Part shown: one piece after another, positions 5,090 to 61,989 of the stretch
Position numbering within the stretch: the first letter of the stretch is position 1
How the letters are laid out: each line of letters opens with the position of its first letter
Assembly: GCA_964016885.1 (NCBI GenBank)
Contig: OZ024754.1
Coordinates: 44,702,001-44,766,000, forward strand
DNA length: 64,000 nt
Source of the DNA: Eledone cirrhosa
Lineage: Eukaryota
Direction: 5' to 3'
Notes under the pieces: generated by a model
What the model saw: the letters and a program-made list of their open reading frames with translations, nothing else
Database searches by the model: none
Told to the model about the DNA's origin: nothing
Program-made: the position numbers and the translations under genes

Positions 5090-5384
5090 CAAATGTGAAG
5101 GTATGTGGCTGAGTATCGGTTTCGCAATTGTGAGGTTGGGCGTTCTATTCCTGGAACGGGTGATGTGTTATGTCCTTGAGCAAGACACTTTATTTCACGT
5201 TGCTCCTTCTGCCTGGAGTTGTGGCCAGTAGATAGTATTAGCAATTGGATAGACTAATGGAAACATTGTTTCCTCGGTCAAGGAAAACAGGTGCAAAATG
5301 ATGGTATATGTGCATGTGTGTGTGGTTAAGTATGTATGTGTGTGTGTATGTGTGTTACTTTAAATAATTCTAAAAAAAAATAAA

Positions 5385-5407
5385 TCATTTTTTCTTCTCT
5401 TTCACAG
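5385..5407 (+). other. Splice acceptor of a 5'-UTR intron of the ASL-like gene
   Basis: Strong polypyrimidine tract tcatttttttcttctctttcacag ending at 5407, about 190 nt before the ATG. Confidence 0.6.
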
Positions 5408-5596
5408 GTTGATAACTTCAAAGAACACTGACAACTTTCATCCTGTTATTGTAATTGTCTAATTTTGTTTGTTTGTTTTATTTTCTGTATCTACGTGGTT
5501 TTTATTATCATTGTTACAGCATCAGATTGTCTTGAAAACAAGTCACCATACTTGTTTCCTTATTGTGTTCCTCCTCATTCAATTATTTGAGTCATC

Positions 5597-7234
5597 ATGC
5601 AGAGTCTTTACCGTTCCTTCATGAAATCATTTATTATGATCATCTTCACCGTCACCTTACTGCTGCTCATTTTTGTTCTGGGTCCAATGAGTGCTTTCTA
5701 TAGCAAGACAAGAGTTTCAACGCAGACATCTGCCATTAAGAAGACACCCCGATCTAATGTTACCAACAGTACCAGGTTCAAACAGAATTCTACTAAAAGC
5801 TTCCGAGAAATATTACATTTGACCGTGAGAGATACTACCACTCATCCGTCGGTGATAAACGGTTCCAAATTCCATGCAGCACATCTTATAACAACTCCAA
5901 AAGACAATCTACAGAACTATGGCATTGCACAAATTGTTGATTACAATCTCTTCAAAGAGGATATTGAATGCAGTAAGGCATATGCCAAAAGTCTGACGCG
6001 GGTTGGTCTGCTCACAAAGAAAGAATGCCATAATATCTTGGATGGGCTTGAAATGATTGGAATGGAATGGGAAAACGGAACATTTGACCTAAAGCCAGAT
6101 GATAAAGATGTCCATGCTGCCAATGAACGGCGCCTTGCTGAGTTGATTGGTTCTGCAGCAAGTAAGTTAAATGCTGGTTGGGATCGCAATGACCAGTTAG
6201 CAACAAGCCTGAGACTATGGCAAAAAAATGCCATTGATGTTCACAAGAATGATCTTATTGCACTGTTGGGAGTTATCACCGAGCGTGCTGAGAAGGAACT
6301 TGGAGTACTTATGGCTGGCTACACCGTCATGCAGCAAGCTCGACCAATTCGATGGAGTCATTGGCTGCTTAGCTTTGGCTGGAAAATCAAGAGAGATATT
6401 GAAAGACTCATGGATCTACTTTCAAGAGTTGACTTGCTCCCACTTGGAAGTGGGGCTCTAGCAGGAAACCCTTTCGGAGTTGACAGAATGTTTCTAGCCA
6501 AAGAACTCGGTTTTGCTGATATCATTGAAAACAGCATCGATGCTGTTAATGACCAAGATATCATCTTTGAATATGTTGCATGGGCATCAATTATGGCAGC
6601 TCATTTTCACAATTTGGCCGACGATCTTATTTTATACAGTACGAAAGATTTTGGCTTTGTGGAACTTTCCAATCCTCTTCACAATGCCAGTACCCCTTCT
6701 AATGAGAATGCACGAAGCTTGGAAGAAATCCGTGGCAAAACTAATTATATCTTCGGTGAATACACCGAGATGTTGAGTGTCTTGAAAGAATTCTCAAACT
6801 TACACAACAATGATTTTCTGTCAAATGCAAAAGGCATGTTTGATATTTACAGAACAATTGTCAATGCTTTGCCAATAACCAGAACAATCCTTTCTTCTTT
6901 GAAAATAAACCCAGACAAAATGGAAGCATCCCTTAGTGAAGACATGTTATTACCAGACTTGGAATATTATATGGTACGGAAAGGGTTACCTGCAGACAAA
7001 GCCCATAGCCTTGTTGGTTTGTGTGTTGGGTTGTCACAGAAAAAAGGTGTAACGTTCTCAAAACTCTCCTTGGCTGAACTGAGATCAGTTAGCCCAGTTT
7101 TTGAGCTTGATGTGAAGTCAGTATGGAATTATAACAACAGTGTTGAGCAGTATTCAGTACCAGGAGGAACAAGTCATGCTAGTGTACAGCGCCAAATAGG
7201 TCAGTTGAAGAAATGGATGTCATTCCAAAGATAA
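5597..7234 (+). CDS. Argininosuccinate lyase-fold protein with N-terminal signal/anchor and degenerate active site (ASL-like probable pseudoenzyme), 545 aa, single coding exon
   Basis: Intact ORF collinear with animal ASL from about aa 115: SKAYAKSL, HAANERRL, RNDQ, PIRWSHWLLS, LPLGSGALAGNP, DLILYSTKDFGFV, YYMVRKG, VWNYNNSVEQY..GGT. Hydrophobic run FIMIIFTVTLLLLIFVL at aa 12-28. GYTHLQ is GYTVMQ and the GSSLMPQKKNP signature is absent. Gene symbol withheld because it is probably not the ASL orthologue. Confidence 0.9.
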   Translation: MQSLYRSFMKSFIMIIFTVTLLLLIFVLGPMSAFYSKTRVSTQTSAIKKTPRSNVTNSTRFKQNSTKSFREILHLTVRDTTTHPSVINGSKFHAAHLITTPKDNLQNYGIAQIVDYNLFKEDIECSKAYAKSLTRVGLLTKKECHNILDGLEMIGMEWENGTFDLKPDDKDVHAANERRLAELIGSAASKLNAGWDRNDQLATSLRLWQKNAIDVHKNDLIALLGVITERAEKELGVLMAGYTVMQQARPIRWSHWLLSFGWKIKRDIERLMDLLSRVDLLPLGSGALAGNPFGVDRMFLAKELGFADIIENSIDAVNDQDIIFEYVAWASIMAAHFHNLADDLILYSTKDFGFVELSNPLHNASTPSNENARSLEEIRGKTNYIFGEYTEMLSVLKEFSNLHNNDFLSNAKGMFDIYRTIVNALPITRTILSSLKINPDKMEASLSEDMLLPDLEYYMVRKGLPADKAHSLVGLCVGLSQKKGVTFSKLSLAELRSVSPVFELDVKSVWNYNNSVEQYSVPGGTSHASVQRQIGQLKKWMSFQR

Positions 7235-7716: not shown

Positions 7717-8280
7717 CTTCACTGCTGTCCTCACAGGAAGTGAACCCAGCCCCATGTGAGTCCATGTTATTCACTGCTGTCCTCACAGGAAGTAACCCCT
7801 GCTTCATGTGATTTCCATGTTATTCACTGCTGTCCTTACAGGAAGTCAACCCAGCCCCATATGAGTCCATGTTATTCAGTGCTGTCCTCACAGGAAGTCG
7901 TCCCAGCCACATGTGATTTCATATTCTTCACTGCTGTCCTCACAGGAAGTCATCCCAGCCCCATGTGAGTCCATGTTATTCACTGCTGCCCTGACAGGAA
8001 GTCATCCCAGCCCCATGTGAGTCCATGTTATTCGCTGCTGCCTTGACAGGAAGTCATCCCAGCCCCATGTAAGTCCATGTTATTCACTGCTGTCCTCACA
8101 GGAAATCAACCCAACCTCATGTGATTTCCATGTTATTCACTGCTGTCCTCACAGGAAGTCATGCCAGCCACATGTGATTTCCATGTTATTCACTGCTGTC
8201 CTCACAGGAAGTCATGCCAGCCACATGTGATTTCCATGTTATTCATTGCTGTCCTCACAGGAAGTCATTCCAGGCCCATG
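7717..8280. repeat. 52-bp minisatellite, about 11 copies
   Basis: Unit ttattcactgctgtcctcacaggaagtcatcccagccccatgtgagtccatg. Confidence 0.9.
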
Positions 8281-29045: not shown

Positions 29046-29251
29046 GTTTGAAATAGAAAAGAAATTGCGACAGGCAAAGAAGAAAGATCAAAAGGGGAAA
29101 AAGAAGTCTTCCTCCGACTCAGGTTCACGACAAGTTGCCACACCGAGTCAGCGGAGCCAAGAACGACGTAAAAACATTGAGGACAAGAGGGACAGCAAGA
29201 TGTCTGCCTTTAAGAATCTGAAGGCTAGGAGAGAAGAGAAGAAAACTAAAG
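29046..29251 (+). CDS. RTF1: Rtf1 coding exon 5
   Basis: ttag|G (R)FEIEKKLRQAKKK...LKARREEKKTK G|gtttgt. Confidence 0.92.
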
Positions 29252-29367
29252 GTTTGTATAGGGCTTTATACTCTCCCTCTCCTCACTCTTTCTCTCCCTC
29301 TCACTCACTTCCATCAGTCTATCATTAGACTGCAGTGTCATTCTCTTACTCTACTCTTTCTCTTCAG

Positions 29368-29599
29368 AGATTGCAATCAAAGAGCAACAGAAAAAGAAGC
29401 TGGCCGTGAACCACATCTACTCAGATGATGATGATGACGACGATGATGATGATGATGATGATGCTGCAGATAGTACTAATAAAGAAGAGAGCAGTCGGAA
29501 GAGTGAGCGAGAAGAAAAGCACAAGAAAGCAGACTCTTCATCATCATCAGACTCCAGCGATGATCGCTCATCAGCTTCCTCAGACTCCGACTCAAATGG
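29368..29599 (+). CDS. RTF1: Rtf1 coding exon 6
   Basis: ttcag| EIAIKEQQKKKLAVNHIYSDDDD...SDSN GG|gtaggt. Acidic, Ser-rich. Confidence 0.88.
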
Positions 29600-29618
29600 G
29601 TAGGTGTCCTCGCATCGC

Positions 29619-31240
29619 TATTGTATTGTCACAGTAAAGGCTTTACCACACATAATATCTCACATAACATTTACATTACTCTATATATACTATTGTATTT
29701 TCACAGTAAAGGCTTTACCTCACATAATATCTCACATAACATTTACATTACTCTATATATACTATTGTATTTTCACAGTAAAGGCTTTACCTCACATAAT
29801 ATCTCACATAACATTTACATTACTCTATATATACTATTGTATTTTCACAGTAAAGGCTTTACCTCACATAATATCTCACATAACATTTACATTACTCTAT
29901 ATATACTATTGTATTTTCACAGTAAAGGCTTTACCTCACATAATATTTCACATAACATTTACATTACTCTATATATACTATTGTATTTTCACAGTAAAGG
30001 CTTTACCACACATAATATCTCCCATAACATTTACATTACTCTATATATACTATTGTATTTTCACAGTAAAGGCTTTACCTCACATAATATTTCACATAAC
30101 ATTTACATTACTCTATATATACTATTGTATTTTCACAGTAAAGGCTTTACCACACATAATATCTCACATAACATTTACATTACTCTATATATACTATTGT
30201 ATTTTCACAGTAAAGGCTTTACCACACATAATATCTCCCATAACATTTACATTACTCTATATATACTATTGTATTTTCACAGTAAAGGCTTTACCTCACA
30301 TAATATCTCACATAACATTTACATTACTCTATATATACTATTGTATTTTCACAGTAACGGCTTTACCTCACATAATATCTCACATAACATTTACATTACT
30401 CTATATATACTATTGTATTTTCACAGTAAAGGCTTTACCACACATAATATCTCCCATAACATTTACATTACTCTATATATACTATTGTATTTTCACGGTA
30501 AAGGCTTTACCTCACATAATATCTCACATAACATTTACATTACTCTATATATACTATTGTATTTTCACAGTAAAGGCTTTACCACACATAATATCTCCCA
30601 TAACATTTACATTACTCTATATATACTATTGTATTTTCACAGTAAAGGCTTTACCTCACATAATATCTCACATAACATTTACATTACTCTATATATACTA
30701 TTGTATTTTCACAGTAACGGCTTTACCTCACATAATATCTCACATAACATTTACATTACTCTATATATACTATTGTATTTTCACAGTAAAGGCTTTACCA
30801 CACATAATATCTCCCATAACATTTACATTACTCTATATATACTATTGTATTTTCACGGTAAAGGCTTTACCTCACATAATATCTCACATAACATTTACAT
30901 TACTCTATATATACTATTGTATTTTCACAGTAAAGGCTTTACCTCACATAATATCTCCATAACATTTACATTACTCTATATATACTATTGTATTTTCACG
31001 GTAAAGGCTTTACCTCACATAATATCTCACATAACATTTACATTACTCTATATATACTATTGTATTTTCACAGTAAAGGCTTTACCTCACATAATATCTC
31101 ACATAACATTTACATTACTCTATATATACTATTGTATTTTCACAGTAAAGGCTTTACCTCACATAATATCTCACATAACATTTACATTACTCTATATATA
31201 CTATTGTATTTTCACGGTAAAGGCTTTACCTCACATAATA
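29619..31240. repeat. 72-bp minisatellite, about 22.5 copies, derived from the piggyBac-type MITE
   Basis: Unit tattgtattttcacagtaaaggctttacctcacataatatctcacataacatttacattactctatatatac. The array runs into the MITE right half ending ctaaagggttaa at 31372. Confidence 0.93.
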
Positions 31241-32206
31241 TTGAATCTACGAGTTTTTGATATTATTTATTTTGAGAACAATACCTTAATATCAGTATGA
31301 ATGGCCAGTTAAAGCCAGTTTGAACAGAAAGAGGTGAGAGAATTCTAGACAGTTTAAATGCTAAAGGGTTAACATAAGTATGAGCAGCCGATTTGAATAG
31401 AGGGAATTCTGGTCAGATACGGCTAGTCTAAATGCTAAAGGGTTAAAGTTGCTTGTTTTTACAATTTTATTCTTTTATTTAAATATAACTTCCTAGAACC
31501 CCCCCCCAAATAGAAAGAAAGAAAGTCCTGTCTTTATTGGCCCTTCAGATACATAACCATCTGTATTTCCTTCCCTTTCAGCTCCTCAGTTCACATATTC
31601 ACATGCATGAGATAACAATAGGAATCTCATTAAACTATAGTTTCAAATAATTTATTCAACTAATTCTCTATCTGCCCACAAGCTGTTCTACACAATTACA
31701 ATGTTCAACAGATTGACTGAAGAAGGTCAATTTATTGCAAAATTGAATCACAGAAAGAACGAAAAGAAAACTAAAATAGGAAGTTATCATAGCAAGAATT
31801 TAATTTTTTTTTTATTGTTAGTTGAAAATTAAAACAGTAATTACATTTAAATTACTTTTACAATTACTAATGCTACTAGTAAAATGTTAATAATGTGTGG
31901 CCTAGTGGTAAGGGTGTTGGACTTGTGATCATAATGTTGTGGGTTTGATTCCTGGGCTGTGTTTTGTGGTAAAGGCTTTATCTTACATAATTACCTCACA
32001 TAATATCGAATCTATGAGGTTTTGATATTTATTTTGAGAACAATACCTTTAACATCAGTATGAGTGGCCAGTTACAGCTGGTTTGAACAGAAAGAGGTGA
32101 GATAATTCTGACCAGATATGGCCAGTTTAAATACTAAAGGGTTAACACTCTTTTTCCTGTTGTAGCATAAAAATCAACTAATTCTTATCTGGTTCCTCTA
32201 TTGCAG

Positions 32207-32293
32207 TAGTCCAAAATCCCGCAAAAAAAGCACAGTTTATGCCACCAGAGATGATTTATCTAAGATACGACTTTCACGCAACAAAATGGAAAG
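32207..32293 (+). CDS. RTF1: Rtf1 coding exon 7 (start of Plus3 domain)
   Basis: ttgcag| SPKSRKKSTVYATRDDLSKIRLSRNKME R|gtgagt. Confidence 0.92.
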
Positions 32294-32927
32294 GTGAGTA
32301 TATTTTCATCACGTTACTATTTGAATTCTCGTTTCACCAGAGTTAACTTCCAGTATGTCATTCATCATTGTTACCATTTAACATCTGTTTTCCCTACTAG
32401 AAAGGGTTGGGCAGGTCTTCATGGACAGAGTCAGTACTGAAGCAGGTCTTACTGACCTCCCAGACAGGTCAGCACTTCCCATGTTCTACTGAGTACATAT
32501 TACTGTGGCACCAGCACTAGAGGTTGTCAAGTCATCGATACAACTGAGCGGTGTAGATCACCAACACTAGAGTGGCTGGGGGTGAGTTTAGTTGGTGATG
32601 TCCTCTTCTACAAATGTGTAACTGTATGTCAATATAAAGAACATTCTCAGGATTATTATCATCATCATCATCATTATTATTATTAGGGCGGTGGATTGGC
32701 AGTATTGGTAGAGCGTTGGACACCTACTTCGCGGCATAGAGTTATGGCCCTTTACATTTTGAGTTTAAATTCCACTGAAGTTAGCTTTGTCTTTCATTCT
32801 TAAGGGAGTCGATAAAATAGAGTACCAGTAATGCGCTGGGGTCGATTTAACCGATCCCCCCCCCTCCCCTTCAAATTGCTGGACTTGTGCCAAAAATAGA
32901 AACAATTGTTATGTTATTTTATTTTAG

Positions 32928-33018
32928 GTGGTGTCACATGCCCTTTTTCAAAAACACTGTCATGGGTTGCTTTGTACGGATTGGTATTGGAAACCATGAA
33001 GGCCGAGCTATATACAGA
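32928..33018 (+). CDS. RTF1: Rtf1 coding exon 8 (Plus3)
   Basis: [30 protein letters not shown] |gtgagt, characteristic Plus3 sequence. Confidence 0.95.
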
Positions 33019-33734
33019 GTGAGTAGAATACATCTCATCTTTTATTTTCAACTTTTCTCTGACAGACTCCCTTCCCCAACACTGTTTCTCTGCTCCTCAC
33101 CTCGACAGCAGGTCACTGCAGTCCTGCTCCTCTGACACCAGGTTTCTCTCAGTCCTCATGCTCCTTGCTGTAACATCAGGTGCCTCCGTAGTCCTTGTGC
33201 TGTGCTCCTTGCTCCTCACTCTGTACCAGGTCCCTTCCCCCCTCGTGCAGCCCTTCTGTTCTTCTGACACCCTGCTCCTCCCACTCCTTATGTTTCTACC
33301 TTTTGCTCCCCTATCATCTGTTGATGAACCCTGCTCCTACATTCAATAATGTCCTCACAATCACAGACTTTGTTTAGCCCTTAGTCAATGATTATGATCA
33401 AGCAGGCTTCTGGTCAGAATCTATGGCTATCTGATGTAGTTTAACCCCAGTTCCAGCCTTAGTCTGGTAGACACCCTGATCACCTGATAGAGCTCCAGCT
33501 CCTTACCCTACTTTCTTTACAACTGCTATTGTATGACACAGCTCCCCACACAGCTCCTTCCTCACCCCAGCTCATGTTGTATGATGCAGCACCACCCCTA
33601 CGCACACAACCACTGTTGTATGACATAGCCTCCCTACTCCCCATCATCTGTTATATAACCCTGCTCCCTCCCCCAGTCCTACAACCCCTGTTAGAGGTCA
33701 CACCCTCATCAATAACATTCTCCCTTCCTTTCAG

Positions 33735-33817
33735 GTGGCTGAAATAATTGATGTTGTGGAAACATTGAAAATCTATCAACTTGGCTCAGCTCGAACAAAT
33801 AAAGGTGTCCGACTAAG
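33735..33817 (+). CDS. RTF1: Rtf1 coding exon 9 (Plus3)
   Basis: ttcag| [28 protein letters not shown]|gtaaat. Confidence 0.95.
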
Positions 33818-34305
33818 GTAAATAGTTTGGAAAAGAGTTGTTGTGGTTGTGGTGGTACCGGTGGTTGTTGTGGTTGTGGTGGTACCGGTGGTTGTTGTGG
33901 TTATTGTCGTTGTGGTGGTACCGGTGGTTGTGGTTATTGTGGTGGTACCGGTGGTTGTTGTGGTTATTGTGATAGTGGTATCGTTATTGTGGTGCTAGAT
34001 CTAACTGTATATTATACTATTCTATGAACTCTCACTGTGTAGTACACTACTGTATGAGGTCTAACTATATAGTATACTATTCTATGAGTTCTAACTATAT
34101 GATATTCAATTCTATGACCTCTCTGTGCAATATACTATTCTACAAGGTCTAACTATATAGTATATTATTCTACAAGGTCTAACTATGCAATATACAAGGT
34201 CTAACTATATAGTATACTATTCTACAAGGTCTAATTATATGATATACTATTCTACAAGGTCTAACTATGTAGTATACTATTGTGTATTGGTTTTGTCTTG
34301 AGCAG

Positions 34306-34501
34306 GCATGGAGGTGCTGAACGAGTGTACAGGCTAGAGTTTGTATCAAATCAAGATTTCACAGAATCAGAATTCTTCAAATGGAAGGAAGCAATGGCTC
34401 ATGCAGGCATGACATTACCAACCCGAGAAGAAGTAGAGAAGAAAATCTCAGACATAAACAACGCCTTCAACTACAAATTCAAAGATAACGACATTGAAGA
34501 G
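34306..34501 (+). CDS. RTF1: Rtf1 coding exon 10 (Plus3 end)
   Basis: [30 protein letters not shown]...DIEE |gtatgg. Confidence 0.95.
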
Positions 34502-34741
34502 GTATGGTGCTCTTTTATTTTCTCTGGATTGGCAAAATGTTGTGGGGGTAGGGTAGAAGGTGTGGTGGGGTTGTGGTGGAAGGTGTTGTATGTCTTTGGG
34601 TTGTGGTACGTGTGGTGTGTCTTGGGGTTTGTGGTGGAAGGTGTGGTGTGTCTTGGAGGTATGGTGAGTCCTGAAGGTGTGGTTTATGAAGGGTAGAAAG
34701 TCTAATAATTGTTATATATTGTCTTATTTTTTAAATTTCAG

Positions 34742-34819
34742 ATCGTAGCCGAGAAACAGAAATTTAAGAAAAACCCCCATAATTATGCCATGAGGAAAAC
34801 CCTTTTAATGAAACAGAGG
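34742..34819 (+). CDS. RTF1: Rtf1 coding exon 11
   Basis: IVAEKQKFKKNPHNYAMRKTLLMKQR |gtatgt. Confidence 0.93.
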
Positions 34820-34914
34820 GTATGTTATTCTTTGTGTGCATTTTGTTACATACAGAAGTACTGGAGAGAGGAGTTTGATCTGATGACATGAGAATATTTA
34901 GAGCTGTTAGGTTC

Positions 34915-35430
34915 TAGTATAGCTGTAATATAGCTATAGTATAGCTGTAGTATAGCTATAGAATATCTACAGTATAGCTATAGTATAGCTGTAGAATATC
35001 TACAGTATAGCTATAGTATAGCTGTAGAATATCTATAGTATAGCTGTAGAATATCTATAGTATAGCTGTAGAATATCTATAGTATAGCTGTAGAATATCT
35101 ATAGTATAGCTGTAGAATATCTATAGTCTAGCTGTAGTATAGCTATAGTATAGCTGTAGTATAGCTGTAGAATATCTATAGTATAGCTGTAGAATATCTA
35201 TAGTATAGCTGTAGAATATCTATAGTATAGCTGTAGAATATCTATAGTCTAGCTGTAGTATAGCTATAGTATAGCTGTAGTATAGCTGTAGAATATCTAT
35301 AGTATAGCTGTAGAATATCTATAGTATAGCTGTAGAATATCTATAGTCTAGCTGTAGTATAGCTGTAGAATATCTACAGTATAGCTATAGTATACCTGTA
35401 GTATAGCTATAGTATATCTTATAGTATAGC
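34915..35430. repeat. 11/22-bp minisatellite
   Basis: Unit tatagctgtagaatatctatag. A related 30-bp array lies at about 34030-34280. Confidence 0.9.
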
Positions 35431-35645
35431 TACTGGGTTCTGTTGTATAGCTAGAGTATTTTATATGCCTCGACAAAGTTAAAATTCCTTCGGGCTGGGG
35501 GTAGGGGTAATTGACAATCTTGGTGGTGGTGGCGATGTATAGCTTGTCTGTCAAATGACTAGGGAACATCCAGAGATCCCTAAATTTGGAAATGGTATAA
35601 TCTCTGTCTAGTTGACAAGTGTAACTACATTTTGAGATGAAGTGG

Positions 35646-35677
<32 letters not shown>

Positions 35678-35778
35678 ATACGTGGTGAGGATGGGGAAAG
35701 CAGTCAGAGTAATGATGATGATGATGGTACTTATACTGAAAGTGGTGATGGTTGTTGTACTTGTGATGGTGTTGGAGG

Positions 35779-36263
35779 TACAGGTGAAATTCCGTTATAA
35801 CAAAGTTTTCAGTATAACAAAATTCTTCCACTCCCTGAGGTAACACTTGATGTGTTTCGGTCGATCTCGTTATAAAGAATTTTTTTTTATATGAAGGTAC
35901 ATAGCTTAGTGGTTAGAGCATTGGCCTTGGAATTAAAAGGTTGTGAGTTCAATTCTCAGACCGGGTGATGTGTTGTTTCCTTGAGCAAGACACTTTATTT
36001 CACATTGCTCCAGTTTACTCAGCTGTAGAAATGAGATGATAGGGACTGGGATCCCTATCATTCCACTGTAAAGTGGTCGTGTAGGTGCCACAGAAAAAAG
36101 CACCCAGCACTCACTGTAAATGAGGTTGATGTTAGGAAGGGCATCCAGCTGTAGAAATCAAGCCAGAATCAGTTCCCGTCCCACCCTTGAAAGCAGGGAA
36201 AAGTGGACGTAAAATGATGATGATGATTCTTCGTGAATTTCATTATAACAGAATTTCACTGTA
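35779..36263. mobile_element. TA-flanked Tc1/pogo-like MITE interrupted by a SINE
   Basis: Termini tacaggtgaaattccgttataac and attataacagaatttcactgta are imperfect inverted repeats. Related sequence at about 54775-54916. Confidence 0.6.
35895..36227 (+). mobile_element. tRNA-derived SINE with LINE-like (GAT)n 3' tail, nested in a TA-flanked MITE
   Basis: Family-A head, tail aggaagggcatccagctgtagaaa..ggacgtaaaatgatgatgat. Near-identical inverted copy at about 55084-55400. Confidence 0.85.
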
Positions 36264-36295
36264 GTTATGCTGTTGTTGTTGTTGTTGTTATCTAG

Positions 36296-36417
36296 GACCA
36301 GGCAGAAGTGGAAGGACTGAAAGACAAGGCTAAAGATCTGAATAAACAAATTGAAGAATTGGAAGAGAGGGCCACAGAGCTTGACCGGCGTCGTACTAGT
36401 AACATAAACTCAATTAG
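36296..36417 (+). CDS. RTF1: Rtf1 coding exon 12
   Basis: DQAEVEGLKDKAKDLNKQIEELEERATELDRRRTSNINSI S|gttggt. Confidence 0.93.
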
Positions 36418-36697
36418 GTTGGTCAATGTGATTTTATAATCTGTTTACACCCCCCCCCCCCCCCCCCCCCCGTCTCCACACACACACACCCTCTCCTCCG
36501 CTTACCCCCCACCGCATATTCCATCCCTCCCACCCACTCCCCCAATCCCTGCATATCCCCCATATACCCCCCTCACCCCCCCCCCCCCCAACACACACTC
36601 CATCGTCCCACTTATTCCACCCATCTCCCCCCCCCCCATATTTCACCCTCCCCTATTATTCGGGTCCTGAGAGTATATCTTCCATTTCTCTCTTCAG

Positions 36698-36833
36698 TTA
36701 CATTAACCAACGTAATAGAGAGCGAAATATGATAGAAGCTGAGAAGGCTGCCATAGTTGAGGGAGAGGCTGCACGTAAGGCTGAAGCTGACCCCTTCACA
36801 CGTCGAGCTTGTCGGCCCAGTTTAGTAACAAAA
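36698..36833 (+). CDS. RTF1: Rtf1 coding exon 13
   Basis: (S)YINQRNRERN...DPFTRRACRPSLVTK |gtaagt. Confidence 0.94.
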
Positions 36834-37212
36834 GTAAGTCTTTCTTTCTCTCTTTTCTTTCATTTCTATCTCTCTCTCTCTCTTTTCCCCCCTTTCTCTC
36901 TCTCTCTCTCTCTCTTTTCCCCCCTTTCTCTCTCTCTCTCTCTCATACAATTAACCTGTCTATGTAGAGGTTTAGTTTTCCAAACCTGGAGAGGTATGGA
37001 CTCCATCAGGCTTAAAATGCCTCCAAAACTCTGTATGTCAATAAGGCACCCCTACCACTCTATCAGGAGTTACTGGACCATACATACATACTTACATACA
37101 TACATACATACATACTTACATACATACATACATACATACTTACTTTATCACTGAATTCTTTATATGGTTTTAACTTCCAACTTTCATGGAATTCAATTCC
37201 TTTCTCTTGCAG

Positions 37213-37290
37213 GTTCGTGACCCTGAAATATCATCAATAGTAAAAGCCAAACTAGCAGAAGCTACAGCAGCTGAAGATAGGAAAAAACGA
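37213..37290 (+). CDS. RTF1: Rtf1 coding exon 14
   Basis: ttgcag| VRDPEISSIVKAKLAEATAAEDRKKR |gtgagt, phase 0-0. Confidence 0.82.
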
Positions 37291-37411
37291 GTGAGTGGTT
37301 ACTTATGTGGTTTTACTTGATACATTGTTATGGTTAGTTAGGCTCAGGTGAGCTTTGATCCAGCAAATATAATGATTAGAGACACAGGTAGGATTTTTAC
37401 AGTTAAGAAGT

Positions 37412-61248: not shown

Positions 61249-61350
61249 ATATATAGGAAAAGAGTCAGGACCCCGACGGCTGATCTCCGGCCGTTTTGAC
61301 AGCTAGAGCCGAACTAAGCCACCAATAGATATATATATACTGACTAAAAA

Positions 61351-61989
61351 ATGAGACATTCAAATTGTCAACCAAGCATGTACTGTCACACAGCTCCAAC
61401 GTCATCGTCTGATACCAAGTCGAAGGTTTTACAAATTGTTTTAGATAACAAACAATATTTAAACGAAGGGAAGTGGTACTATGTCGAACTAGACATGGAC
61501 AAGGCGCACCATAAATTATTAAATACTAAAAATGGAACATTTCTCTTAAGAAACAGTCTGAATTCGAACAGTAGGTTTGCTCTGTCAGTGAAAACTTTCA
61601 ACAAAGTTGTCAGTATGAAAATCGTTTCTCGCTATAATTTCTTCCATATAGATTGTGTAAAAGAAGCGGAAAATAGGATACCTCTTTTCCAAACTGTTGT
61701 TGAACTTGTACAGTTTTATTCCAGGCGGCCCTCAAACCAAAACCAACATGGGCAAGTGTTACAACATCGTTGGTGTTGGTTTGATAAATCTGCAAAGAAA
61801 CATATTCCGATAGTGCTAGGAGTTCCATTGAAACACTCAATACCGACATTGAAACATCTCTCTAGGCTTGTGGTCAATCAAACTGTAGAGGAAAATGAAG
61901 TAGAGATCCCACTTCATTATTTAGTAAAAAAACTACCCCTACCAACCTACCTTAAAGACTATATCAGTTCCTATCCATTTGTTATTTAA
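61351..61989 (+). CDS. Suppressor of cytokine signalling (SOCS2/CISH-like), SH2 + SOCS box, 212 aa, single coding exon
   Basis: SH2: KWYY...AHHKLLNTKNGTFLLRNS...FALSVKT...F.TVVELVQFY. SOCS box: PTLKHLSRLVVNQ...LPLPTYLKDYISSYPF. Confidence 0.9.
   Translation: MRHSNCQPSMYCHTAPTSSSDTKSKVLQIVLDNKQYLNEGKWYYVELDMDKAHHKLLNTKNGTFLLRNSLNSNSRFALSVKTFNKVVSMKIVSRYNFFHIDCVKEAENRIPLFQTVVELVQFYSRRPSNQNQHGQVLQHRWCWFDKSAKKHIPIVLGVPLKHSIPTLKHLSRLVVNQTVEENEVEIPLHYLVKKLPLPTYLKDYISSYPFVI

Follow-up and report, generated by a model that had tools for sequence, protein, structure and literature searches.

An argininosuccinate lyase paralogue of octopods with a replaced substrate site and a predicted membrane anchor

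One 545-residue open reading frame in the window, the 64,000-nucleotide stretch of the Eledone cirrhosa genome analyzed here, raises the question of why the fold of argininosuccinate lyase (ASL; EC 4.3.2.1; TIGR00838, PF00206 and PF14698) should be kept when the residues that make it an enzyme are not. A preliminary description of this DNA had read the locus as a candidate pseudoenzyme under selection for a new or altered role. Octopod ASL2, as we call the paralogue, is apparently real, selected and undescribed; in the literature that we searched, which covers few subscription journals, neither an ASL paralogue of cephalopods nor a membrane-anchored ASL was found to be described.

Fold and substrate site of ASL2

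The frame contains no internal stop codon and no intron. That it is an unbroken frame with ASL structure, as first described, was borne out by a domain search (Lyase_1 at aa 114-387, E = 3e-57, and ASL_C2), by the argH profile TIGR00838 (390 bits against a cut-off of 279.5) and by the alignment of residues 113-544 to duck delta2-crystallin and human ASL (E about 1e-119). Because the profile score exceeds the argH cut-off, the orthologues are named 'argininosuccinate lyase(-like)' in databases. The AlphaFold model of ASL2 has a mean pLDDT of 80, and Foldseek matched it to duck delta2-crystallin with TMt of 0.90-0.93 and an rmsd of about 2.5 Å, so that the all-helical three-domain fold of the aspartase/fumarase superfamily is predicted to be present. 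The core is 49% identical to that of octopus ASL1, the canonical enzyme. The host genome measures 3.0 Gb and is AT-rich and rich in microsatellites; positions 6007-7101 of the window are reproduced almost continuously, with 0-1 differing letters per piece and no gaps, by contigs of two sequencing runs (X3 and X4) that come from one study and possibly from the source sample itself.

Table 1 Features of the ASL2 locus, in window coordinates.
Feature	Position	Strand	Evidence
Polypyrimidine tract and AG, likely splice acceptor of a 5' UTR intron	5388..5407	+	sequence only
ASL paralogue ASL2, single-exon CDS, 545 aa	5597..7234	+	ORF, domain and profile matches, orthologues
Short basic tail and hydrophobic helix (aa 11-29, nt 5627-5683), predicted type II signal anchor	5597..5698	+	hydropathy, conservation, model
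Ser/Thr-rich stem, aa 35-112, with sequons N54, N57, N64 and N88; contains decayed WGGRF arm	5699..5932	+	model, alignment
ASL-fold core, aa 113-545	5933..7231	+	AlphaFold model, Foldseek against duck delta2-crystallin
Remodelled region C1, NAGWDRNDQ, aa 192-200 (duck H110N, T111A, R113W, S114D; R115 and N116 kept)	6170..6196	+	alignment
Val244 (GTC) for catalytic His162 (human H160)	6326..6328	+	alignment
Former SS loop, Lys289 to Asn369, sequon N363-A-S365	6671..6715	+	alignment; pLDDT <50 at aa 360-369
Remodelled arginine-site and dimer-dimer segment (duck Y323H, K325N, Q328L, E329S, D330N, K331A)	6788..6829	+	alignment

Residues are numbered as in duck delta2-crystallin unless stated otherwise, and the register was checked on the S283A chain. 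Five ASL motif patterns were scored on 6 octopod ASL2, 8 decapod and 118 canonical ASL sequences. All five were failed by 6/6 octopod proteins, whereas each was matched by 105-118 of the 118 canonical ASLs and by 8/8 decapod orthologues. Most of the individual changes first described were recovered: LWGGRF is absent, the WGGRF arm having decayed; region C1 reads NAGWDRNDQ; the codon at nt 6326 specifies Val; and EFSNLHNNDFLSN occupies aa 398-410. At the position of His162, 6/6 octopod ASL2 proteins carry Val and 170/170 other ASLs carry His. In the available part of PMC2779060, H162 is a catalytic residue that touches the fumarate moiety.

Loss of both the catalytic Ser and Lys from the C3 loop had also been claimed. 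For the Lys this stands; the Ser, however, has probably not simply been replaced, with Ser365 in register with duck Ser283 in a loop that is two residues shorter in this genome. Ser365 doubles as the +2 position of the N-A-S sequon. The loop signature GSSxxPxKxN, described in the accessible portion of PMC13411527 as essential throughout the aspartase/fumarase superfamily, has lost its Gly, Met and Lys and changed in length, while one Ser and the Asn remain. This loop is the most variable segment of the core, measuring 15, 19 or 24 aa in octopod ASL2 versus 17 in 156 of the 157 matched canonical rows (13/170 were unmatched), and an N-x-S/T sequon lies within it in all six octopods.

Changes extend to the arginine site, which we take to comprise S29, R238, Y323, Q328 and K331, the last three with roles there: 5/5 are replaced in 6/6 octopods. 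Among the 21 positions that we assume to make up the active site, 11 (S29, S114, H162, R238, T281, M286, K289, Y323, K325, Q328 and K331) are lost in 6/6 octopods. D33, D89, H91, R115, N116, T161 and E296 are kept; 5/6 octopods retain N291 and a Ser at 283, and 4/6 a Ser at 284. For goose K323 and E327, which belong to the remodelled arginine-site and dimer-dimer segment, we follow the roles given in the available parts of PMC2779060 and PMC4701392. Judged from these replacements, ASL2 very probably has no argininosuccinate lyase activity.

How focused is the loss? Positions conserved in at least 97% of 170 other ASLs were counted as near-invariant (161 positions), and 60/161 are altered in all octopods, versus 8 in the decapod orthologues. 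The claim that loss is concentrated in the active site holds only in a loose sense. Losses are clustered along the chain (58 runs versus 75.9 shuffled, p = 0.002), in the N-terminal arm and at human 275-301 and 316-330, and a wider set of cleft segments is enriched (43/69 versus 17/92), although that set was drawn partly after the data had been seen. On the other hand, the 21-position list showed no enrichment over other invariant sites (11/21 versus 49/140, p = 0.15). Nor did regions C2 and C3, as delimited in the available part of PMC2779060 (9/21 versus 51/140, p = 0.63). R302, E327 and E330, which are dimer-dimer contacts according to the accessible text of PMC4701392, are lost as well, and the interface residues K315, D237, R182, Y158, K299 and E294 are retained. 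Because C2 and C3 are not enriched and dimer-dimer contacts are lost too, the change, as read from the alignment, is one in which constraints specific to the enzyme were relaxed around the cleft and at one subunit interface, rather than a surgical removal of catalytic residues.

Canonical ASL, constraint and orthologues with the predicted anchor

A separate, intron-containing canonical ASL, whose existence the preliminary description had made a point to check, was found on contig C22 of this genome (G000:C22:18.779-18.796 Mb, minus strand). Its coding exons number 16 or more, and its motifs are unaltered (HTGRSRNDQ, GYTHLQ, STGSSLMPQKKN and PSTYNKDLQ). The genome search returned no third ASL-like locus, which leaves two in total. 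The proposed search of related genomes also succeeded: orthologues of ASL2 are present in Octopus bimaculoides (92%), O. sinensis, O. vulgaris, a Logan cluster member and Argonauta hians (86%), all without the motifs and with the same lesions, and the frame is open in 6/6 octopods. In RefSeq, an identical O. bimaculoides ASL2 protein is listed under two accessions, which hints at transcripts differing in their UTRs. Two O. vulgaris rows were excluded from the counts, namely P0123, a model fused to a repeat, and P0133, an ASL1 model missing an exon. In the former (CAI9730668.1), the ASL2 frame is joined to a 14-aa repeat tail, probably through an annotation error, and a normal 549-aa model exists.

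ASL2 is better conserved among octopods than the enzyme. Core identity between O. bimaculoides and Argonauta is 92.6% for ASL2 versus 88.6% for ASL1; between O. bimaculoides and O. sinensis it is 99.8% versus 97.7%, and between this genome and O. bimaculoides 95.1% versus about 90.8% (the latter from exon matches). In the quick tree, the stem branch to octopod ASL2 is very long (2.35), and branches within octopods measure at most 0.09. When octopus was compared with decapod, enzyme-invariant sites had changed at 57/158 in ASL2 versus 3/160 in ASL1 (p = 8e-17) and variable sites at 95/163 versus 87/163 (p = 0.44), the decapod ASL1 being a sequence (P0025) assigned by tree position. Between Octopus and Argonauta, only 17/163 variable sites had changed in ASL2 versus 41/163 in ASL1 (p = 0.0008), and invariant sites at 14/158 versus 1/160; all these counts are at the protein level and from few related species. 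The constraint map is thus flipped: sites critical to the enzyme have been released, and sites free in the enzyme are now held. From these comparisons, octopod ASL2 is almost certainly under purifying selection. That enzyme-variable positions are the most strongly held hints that binding takes place on a surface away from the former active site. The reading of a selected pseudoenzyme rather than a decaying copy is accordingly supported by the canonical ASL elsewhere, the shared lesions and a conservation exceeding that of the canonical gene, yet it was incomplete, lacking the anchor and the intact motifs of the cuttlefish form.

The first 112 residues (anchor and stem) were overlooked in the preliminary description. 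In a Kyte-Doolittle 19-residue window, the ASL2 N-terminus reaches 2.79, versus at most 0.95 in 118 canonical N-termini, and the model has a helix across aa 2-34. None of the 34 positions of the anchor region varies among 6 octopods, and 26/34 are identical to the decapod orthologue. The stem, by comparison, varies at 38/78 positions among octopods, and pLDDT falls below 50 for aa 33-112; nevertheless N54-x-T56 and N64-x-T66 are common to octopod ASL2 and the decapod orthologue despite this drift. ASL2 carries seven sequons, versus a mean of 1.9 in canonical ASLs; that at N160 is common to octopods and decapods (14/14 ASL2 rows versus 15/170 others), and that at N513 is found in 6/6 octopods versus 4/170 others. 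Type II membrane glycoproteins are organized as a short basic tail, a single helix, a stem and sequons, and each of these, the helix being N-terminal and hydrophobic, can be recognized in the ASL2 sequence. The charges flanking the helix are +3 before and -1 after in the decapod orthologue, and balanced (+2/+2) in octopods. On account of the conserved sequons and the decapod charges, the ASL domain is likely to be luminal. All 6 octopod ASL2 proteins have Cys125 (5969-5971), which the two listed decapod rows lack; in the model its helix adjoins Cys144 (6026-6028), and a luminal disulfide is possible.

Of 84 candidate clusters searched with the N-terminal region, only 3 matched; at the 50% level there was 1 representative, and Atlas gave no usable match. 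No squid, vampire squid, cirrate or Nautilus orthologue appeared by name in these searches, which does not imply absence. The decapod orthologues form a 90% cluster of 8 proteins (P0004) that includes Sepia (Acanthosepion) pharaonis CAE1276449.1. The anchor is present in 7/8 rows; the S. pharaonis record (472 aa) begins at a downstream Met and so has none. Automatic annotation thereby conceals an anchored ASL, since octopus records are named simply ASL and that of the cuttlefish is anchorless. In the quick tree, the decapod cluster and octopod ASL2 form one clade, with 58% core identity. Only 8 invariant sites are changed in decapod ASL2, including K325R, and it is probably an active enzyme of the secretory pathway, to judge from its motifs and anchor. 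Near the cleft, K325R, N27G and Y279F were noted in the decapod rows (P0126-P0132). The same anchor on a cuttlefish protein with intact motifs points to two steps, relocation and then catalytic loss in octopods. Moreover, 33 ASL2-specific residues are common to all 14 octopod and decapod rows, which suggests that a surface role was already present in the active ancestor.

Origin and proposed role of ASL2

ASL2 is probably a retrocopy, given that its CDS is intronless and that its parent, ASL1, lies elsewhere with its many coding exons. Against regarding this as demonstrated, ASL2 branched in two free quick trees as the sister group of all remaining animal ASLs (SH-aLRT 90 in one), that is, outside its supposed parents. 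This basal placement is probably a long-branch pull, because a tree constrained to join decapod ASL2 with cephalopod ASL1 scored 12.9 lnL above the free quick tree (p-AU 0.70). Horizontal transfer from Chloroflexota was considered because ASL2 is intronless, is 60-63% identical to Caldilineae-like proteins and has signature residues in common with them (10, versus 5 with molluscs, in a bacterial set that had been chosen by likeness to ASL2 and includes 2 misflagged animal rows). Such a transfer is unneeded: ASL2 and the animals grouped apart from 20 bacterial rows in the quick tree (SH-aLRT 98), and the cephalopod-duplicate tree scored better. Fungi and protists were not deliberately included in the sampling, and a donor among unsampled eukaryotes may have supplied ASL2. 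Animal ASLs as a whole nest inside Chloroflexota ASLs beside Caldilineae-like proteins, at about 60% identity (tree rows L022-L034 and P0137-P0192).

Based on these data, we propose the following course of events. In a coleoid ancestor, an ASL mRNA would have been retrocopied, and the copy would have gained a type II signal anchor and a stem; this form would persist, with its motifs, in cuttlefish. On the octopod stem, catalytic constraint would then have been released, with changes to His162, Lys289, the arginine-site residues, the N-terminal arm and some dimer-dimer salt bridges. The SS loop would have become a length-variable loop whose predicted N363 glycan would likely cover the old cleft. 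Strong purifying selection, strongest at enzyme-variable positions, would have followed, and the tethered dead ASL fold would bind a putative partner via its outer surface. We thus favor, on the sequence evidence, octopod ASL2 as a membrane-tethered, glycosylated, non-catalytic binding or scaffold protein of the secretory-pathway lumen (Golgi) or cell surface; that it works through its outer surface is evenly balanced in our judgment. The broader statement, that coleoids moved a cytosolic arginine-synthesis enzyme to the secretory pathway and octopods made from it a glycan-capped, membrane-tethered binding or receptor module, is one that we advance tentatively, with slightly more doubt than belief.

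The remodelled cleft might instead be the business end of the protein, either as a luminal enzyme with new chemistry or as a small-ligand binder, an unlikely alternative. It would use the site residues retained throughout (listed above) and N291, together with the fixed new W195, D196, Q320 and H403. Ten of the 21 listed site residues are kept, and, leaving aside the arm and loop, 37/41 replaced invariant sites carry the same new residue in all octopods, which is why the cleft may itself bind or catalyze; such fixation is, however, expected given 92% overall identity. CreD, a superfamily member without the His, is still active according to the available part of PMC13411527, but the same text reports that a Lys-to-Ala change kills its activity, and the SS-loop Lys is gone from ASL2. 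The sequon-bearing, length-variable state of the loop likewise speaks against a working cleft.

In a second alternative, which we hold improbable, the helix would be a cleaved signal peptide, and ASL2 would be secreted as a bulk or structural protein of mucus, skin, egg case or reflector, the extracellular counterpart of delta1-crystallin. ASL was recruited as a structural crystallin in birds, as the accessible part of PMC2779060 relates. The Gly-Pro-Met-Ser-Ala stretch after the helix looks like a cleavage region and could be a signal-peptidase site, though a Met at -3 agrees poorly with the cleavage rule. Harder to reconcile are the first 34 residues, which are invariant in octopods, largely decapod-identical and better conserved than the core. 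Conservation beyond that of the core is unusual for a discarded peptide.

A cytosol-facing ASL domain, tethering an arginine/NO metabolon or acting as a regulator that mixes with ASL1 subunits, appears very improbable. A non-catalytic scaffold role of human ASL was reportedly described by Erez in 2011, and the interface residues named above are kept. The active sites of ASL span subunits and complement in trans (PMC12818424, in the part available). This orientation is nonetheless opposed by sequons conserved within an otherwise drifting stem, by decapod flanking charges that favor a cytosolic N-terminus, and by the lost dimer-dimer contacts. Finally, an intronless CDS and 60/161 lost invariant residues might be cited in favor of an assembly artefact or of a processed pseudogene in decay; both can be largely dismissed, with the frame open in every octopod, conservation above that of the active gene and contigs of separate runs agreeing with the window.

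How does the tethered binding protein compare with known systems? Relative to the ASL enzyme, ASL2 has His162, Lys289, Tyr323, Gln328, Lys331, Arg238, Ser29 and Ser114 replaced, a decayed N-terminal arm, a new anchor, stem and sequons, and an intronless CDS. Avian delta1-crystallin, invoked in the preliminary description as a precedent, is inactive, and to that extent the precedent stands: in both cases an ASL duplicate was retained after loss of activity. Delta1-crystallin is, however, found in soluble form in the cytosol of the lens, resembles delta2 to about 90% and keeps most motifs, whereas ASL2 is anchored and predicted to be luminal, with over a third of the invariant sites changed. The cytosolic analogy therefore fits poorly, because a conserved hydrophobic helix, the predicted anchor, and sequons are found in ASL2 in place of the soluble, anchor-free state. 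The available part of a 2026 review of aquatic lenses lists, for cephalopods, only the S-, omega-, O- and L-crystallins (PMC13643694). Closer in kind, with unrelated folds, are Cosmc (C1GALT1C1) and FAM20A, dead luminal paralogues such as octopod ASL2 is proposed to be; Cosmc is a single-exon type II membrane protein. Cosmc and FAM20A, however, act on an active luminal paralogue, and the sole active ASL that the search of this genome yielded is anchorless.

If the proposal is true, cuttlefish would carry out a luminal or extracellular arginine/fumarate chemistry that is so far undescribed, and today's cuttlefish and octopuses would naturally display the states before and after the birth of a pseudoenzyme. 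With the enzyme intact in cuttlefish and its orthologue dead in octopuses, relocalization is separated from catalytic loss, and it becomes testable whether a non-catalytic role preceded the loss of the active site.

Other features of the window

Upstream of the start codon, a weaker acceptor-like site than that in Table 1 ends at 5519, and no ATG lies between 5407 and the ASL2 start codon. Contigs of four runs without a library record contained no informative splice joints. Just 5' of the acceptor, at about 5147-5280, lies a very high-copy short element, probably a SINE, with a summed contig depth of 1e5-1e6. About 480 nt past the ASL2 stop codon, a 52-nt tandem repeat extends over 10.7 copies (7718-8280). 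An open 680-aa frame of a LINE-type reverse transcriptase, followed by a PHD-like finger, occupies 24267-26309 (+), and related fragments are found elsewhere in the window. The exons of an RTF1-like gene lie at 27542-37317 (+), with a Plus-3 domain match at 34265-34693. An exon at 61348-61989 (+) carries SH2 and SOCS box domains of the SOCS/CIS family.
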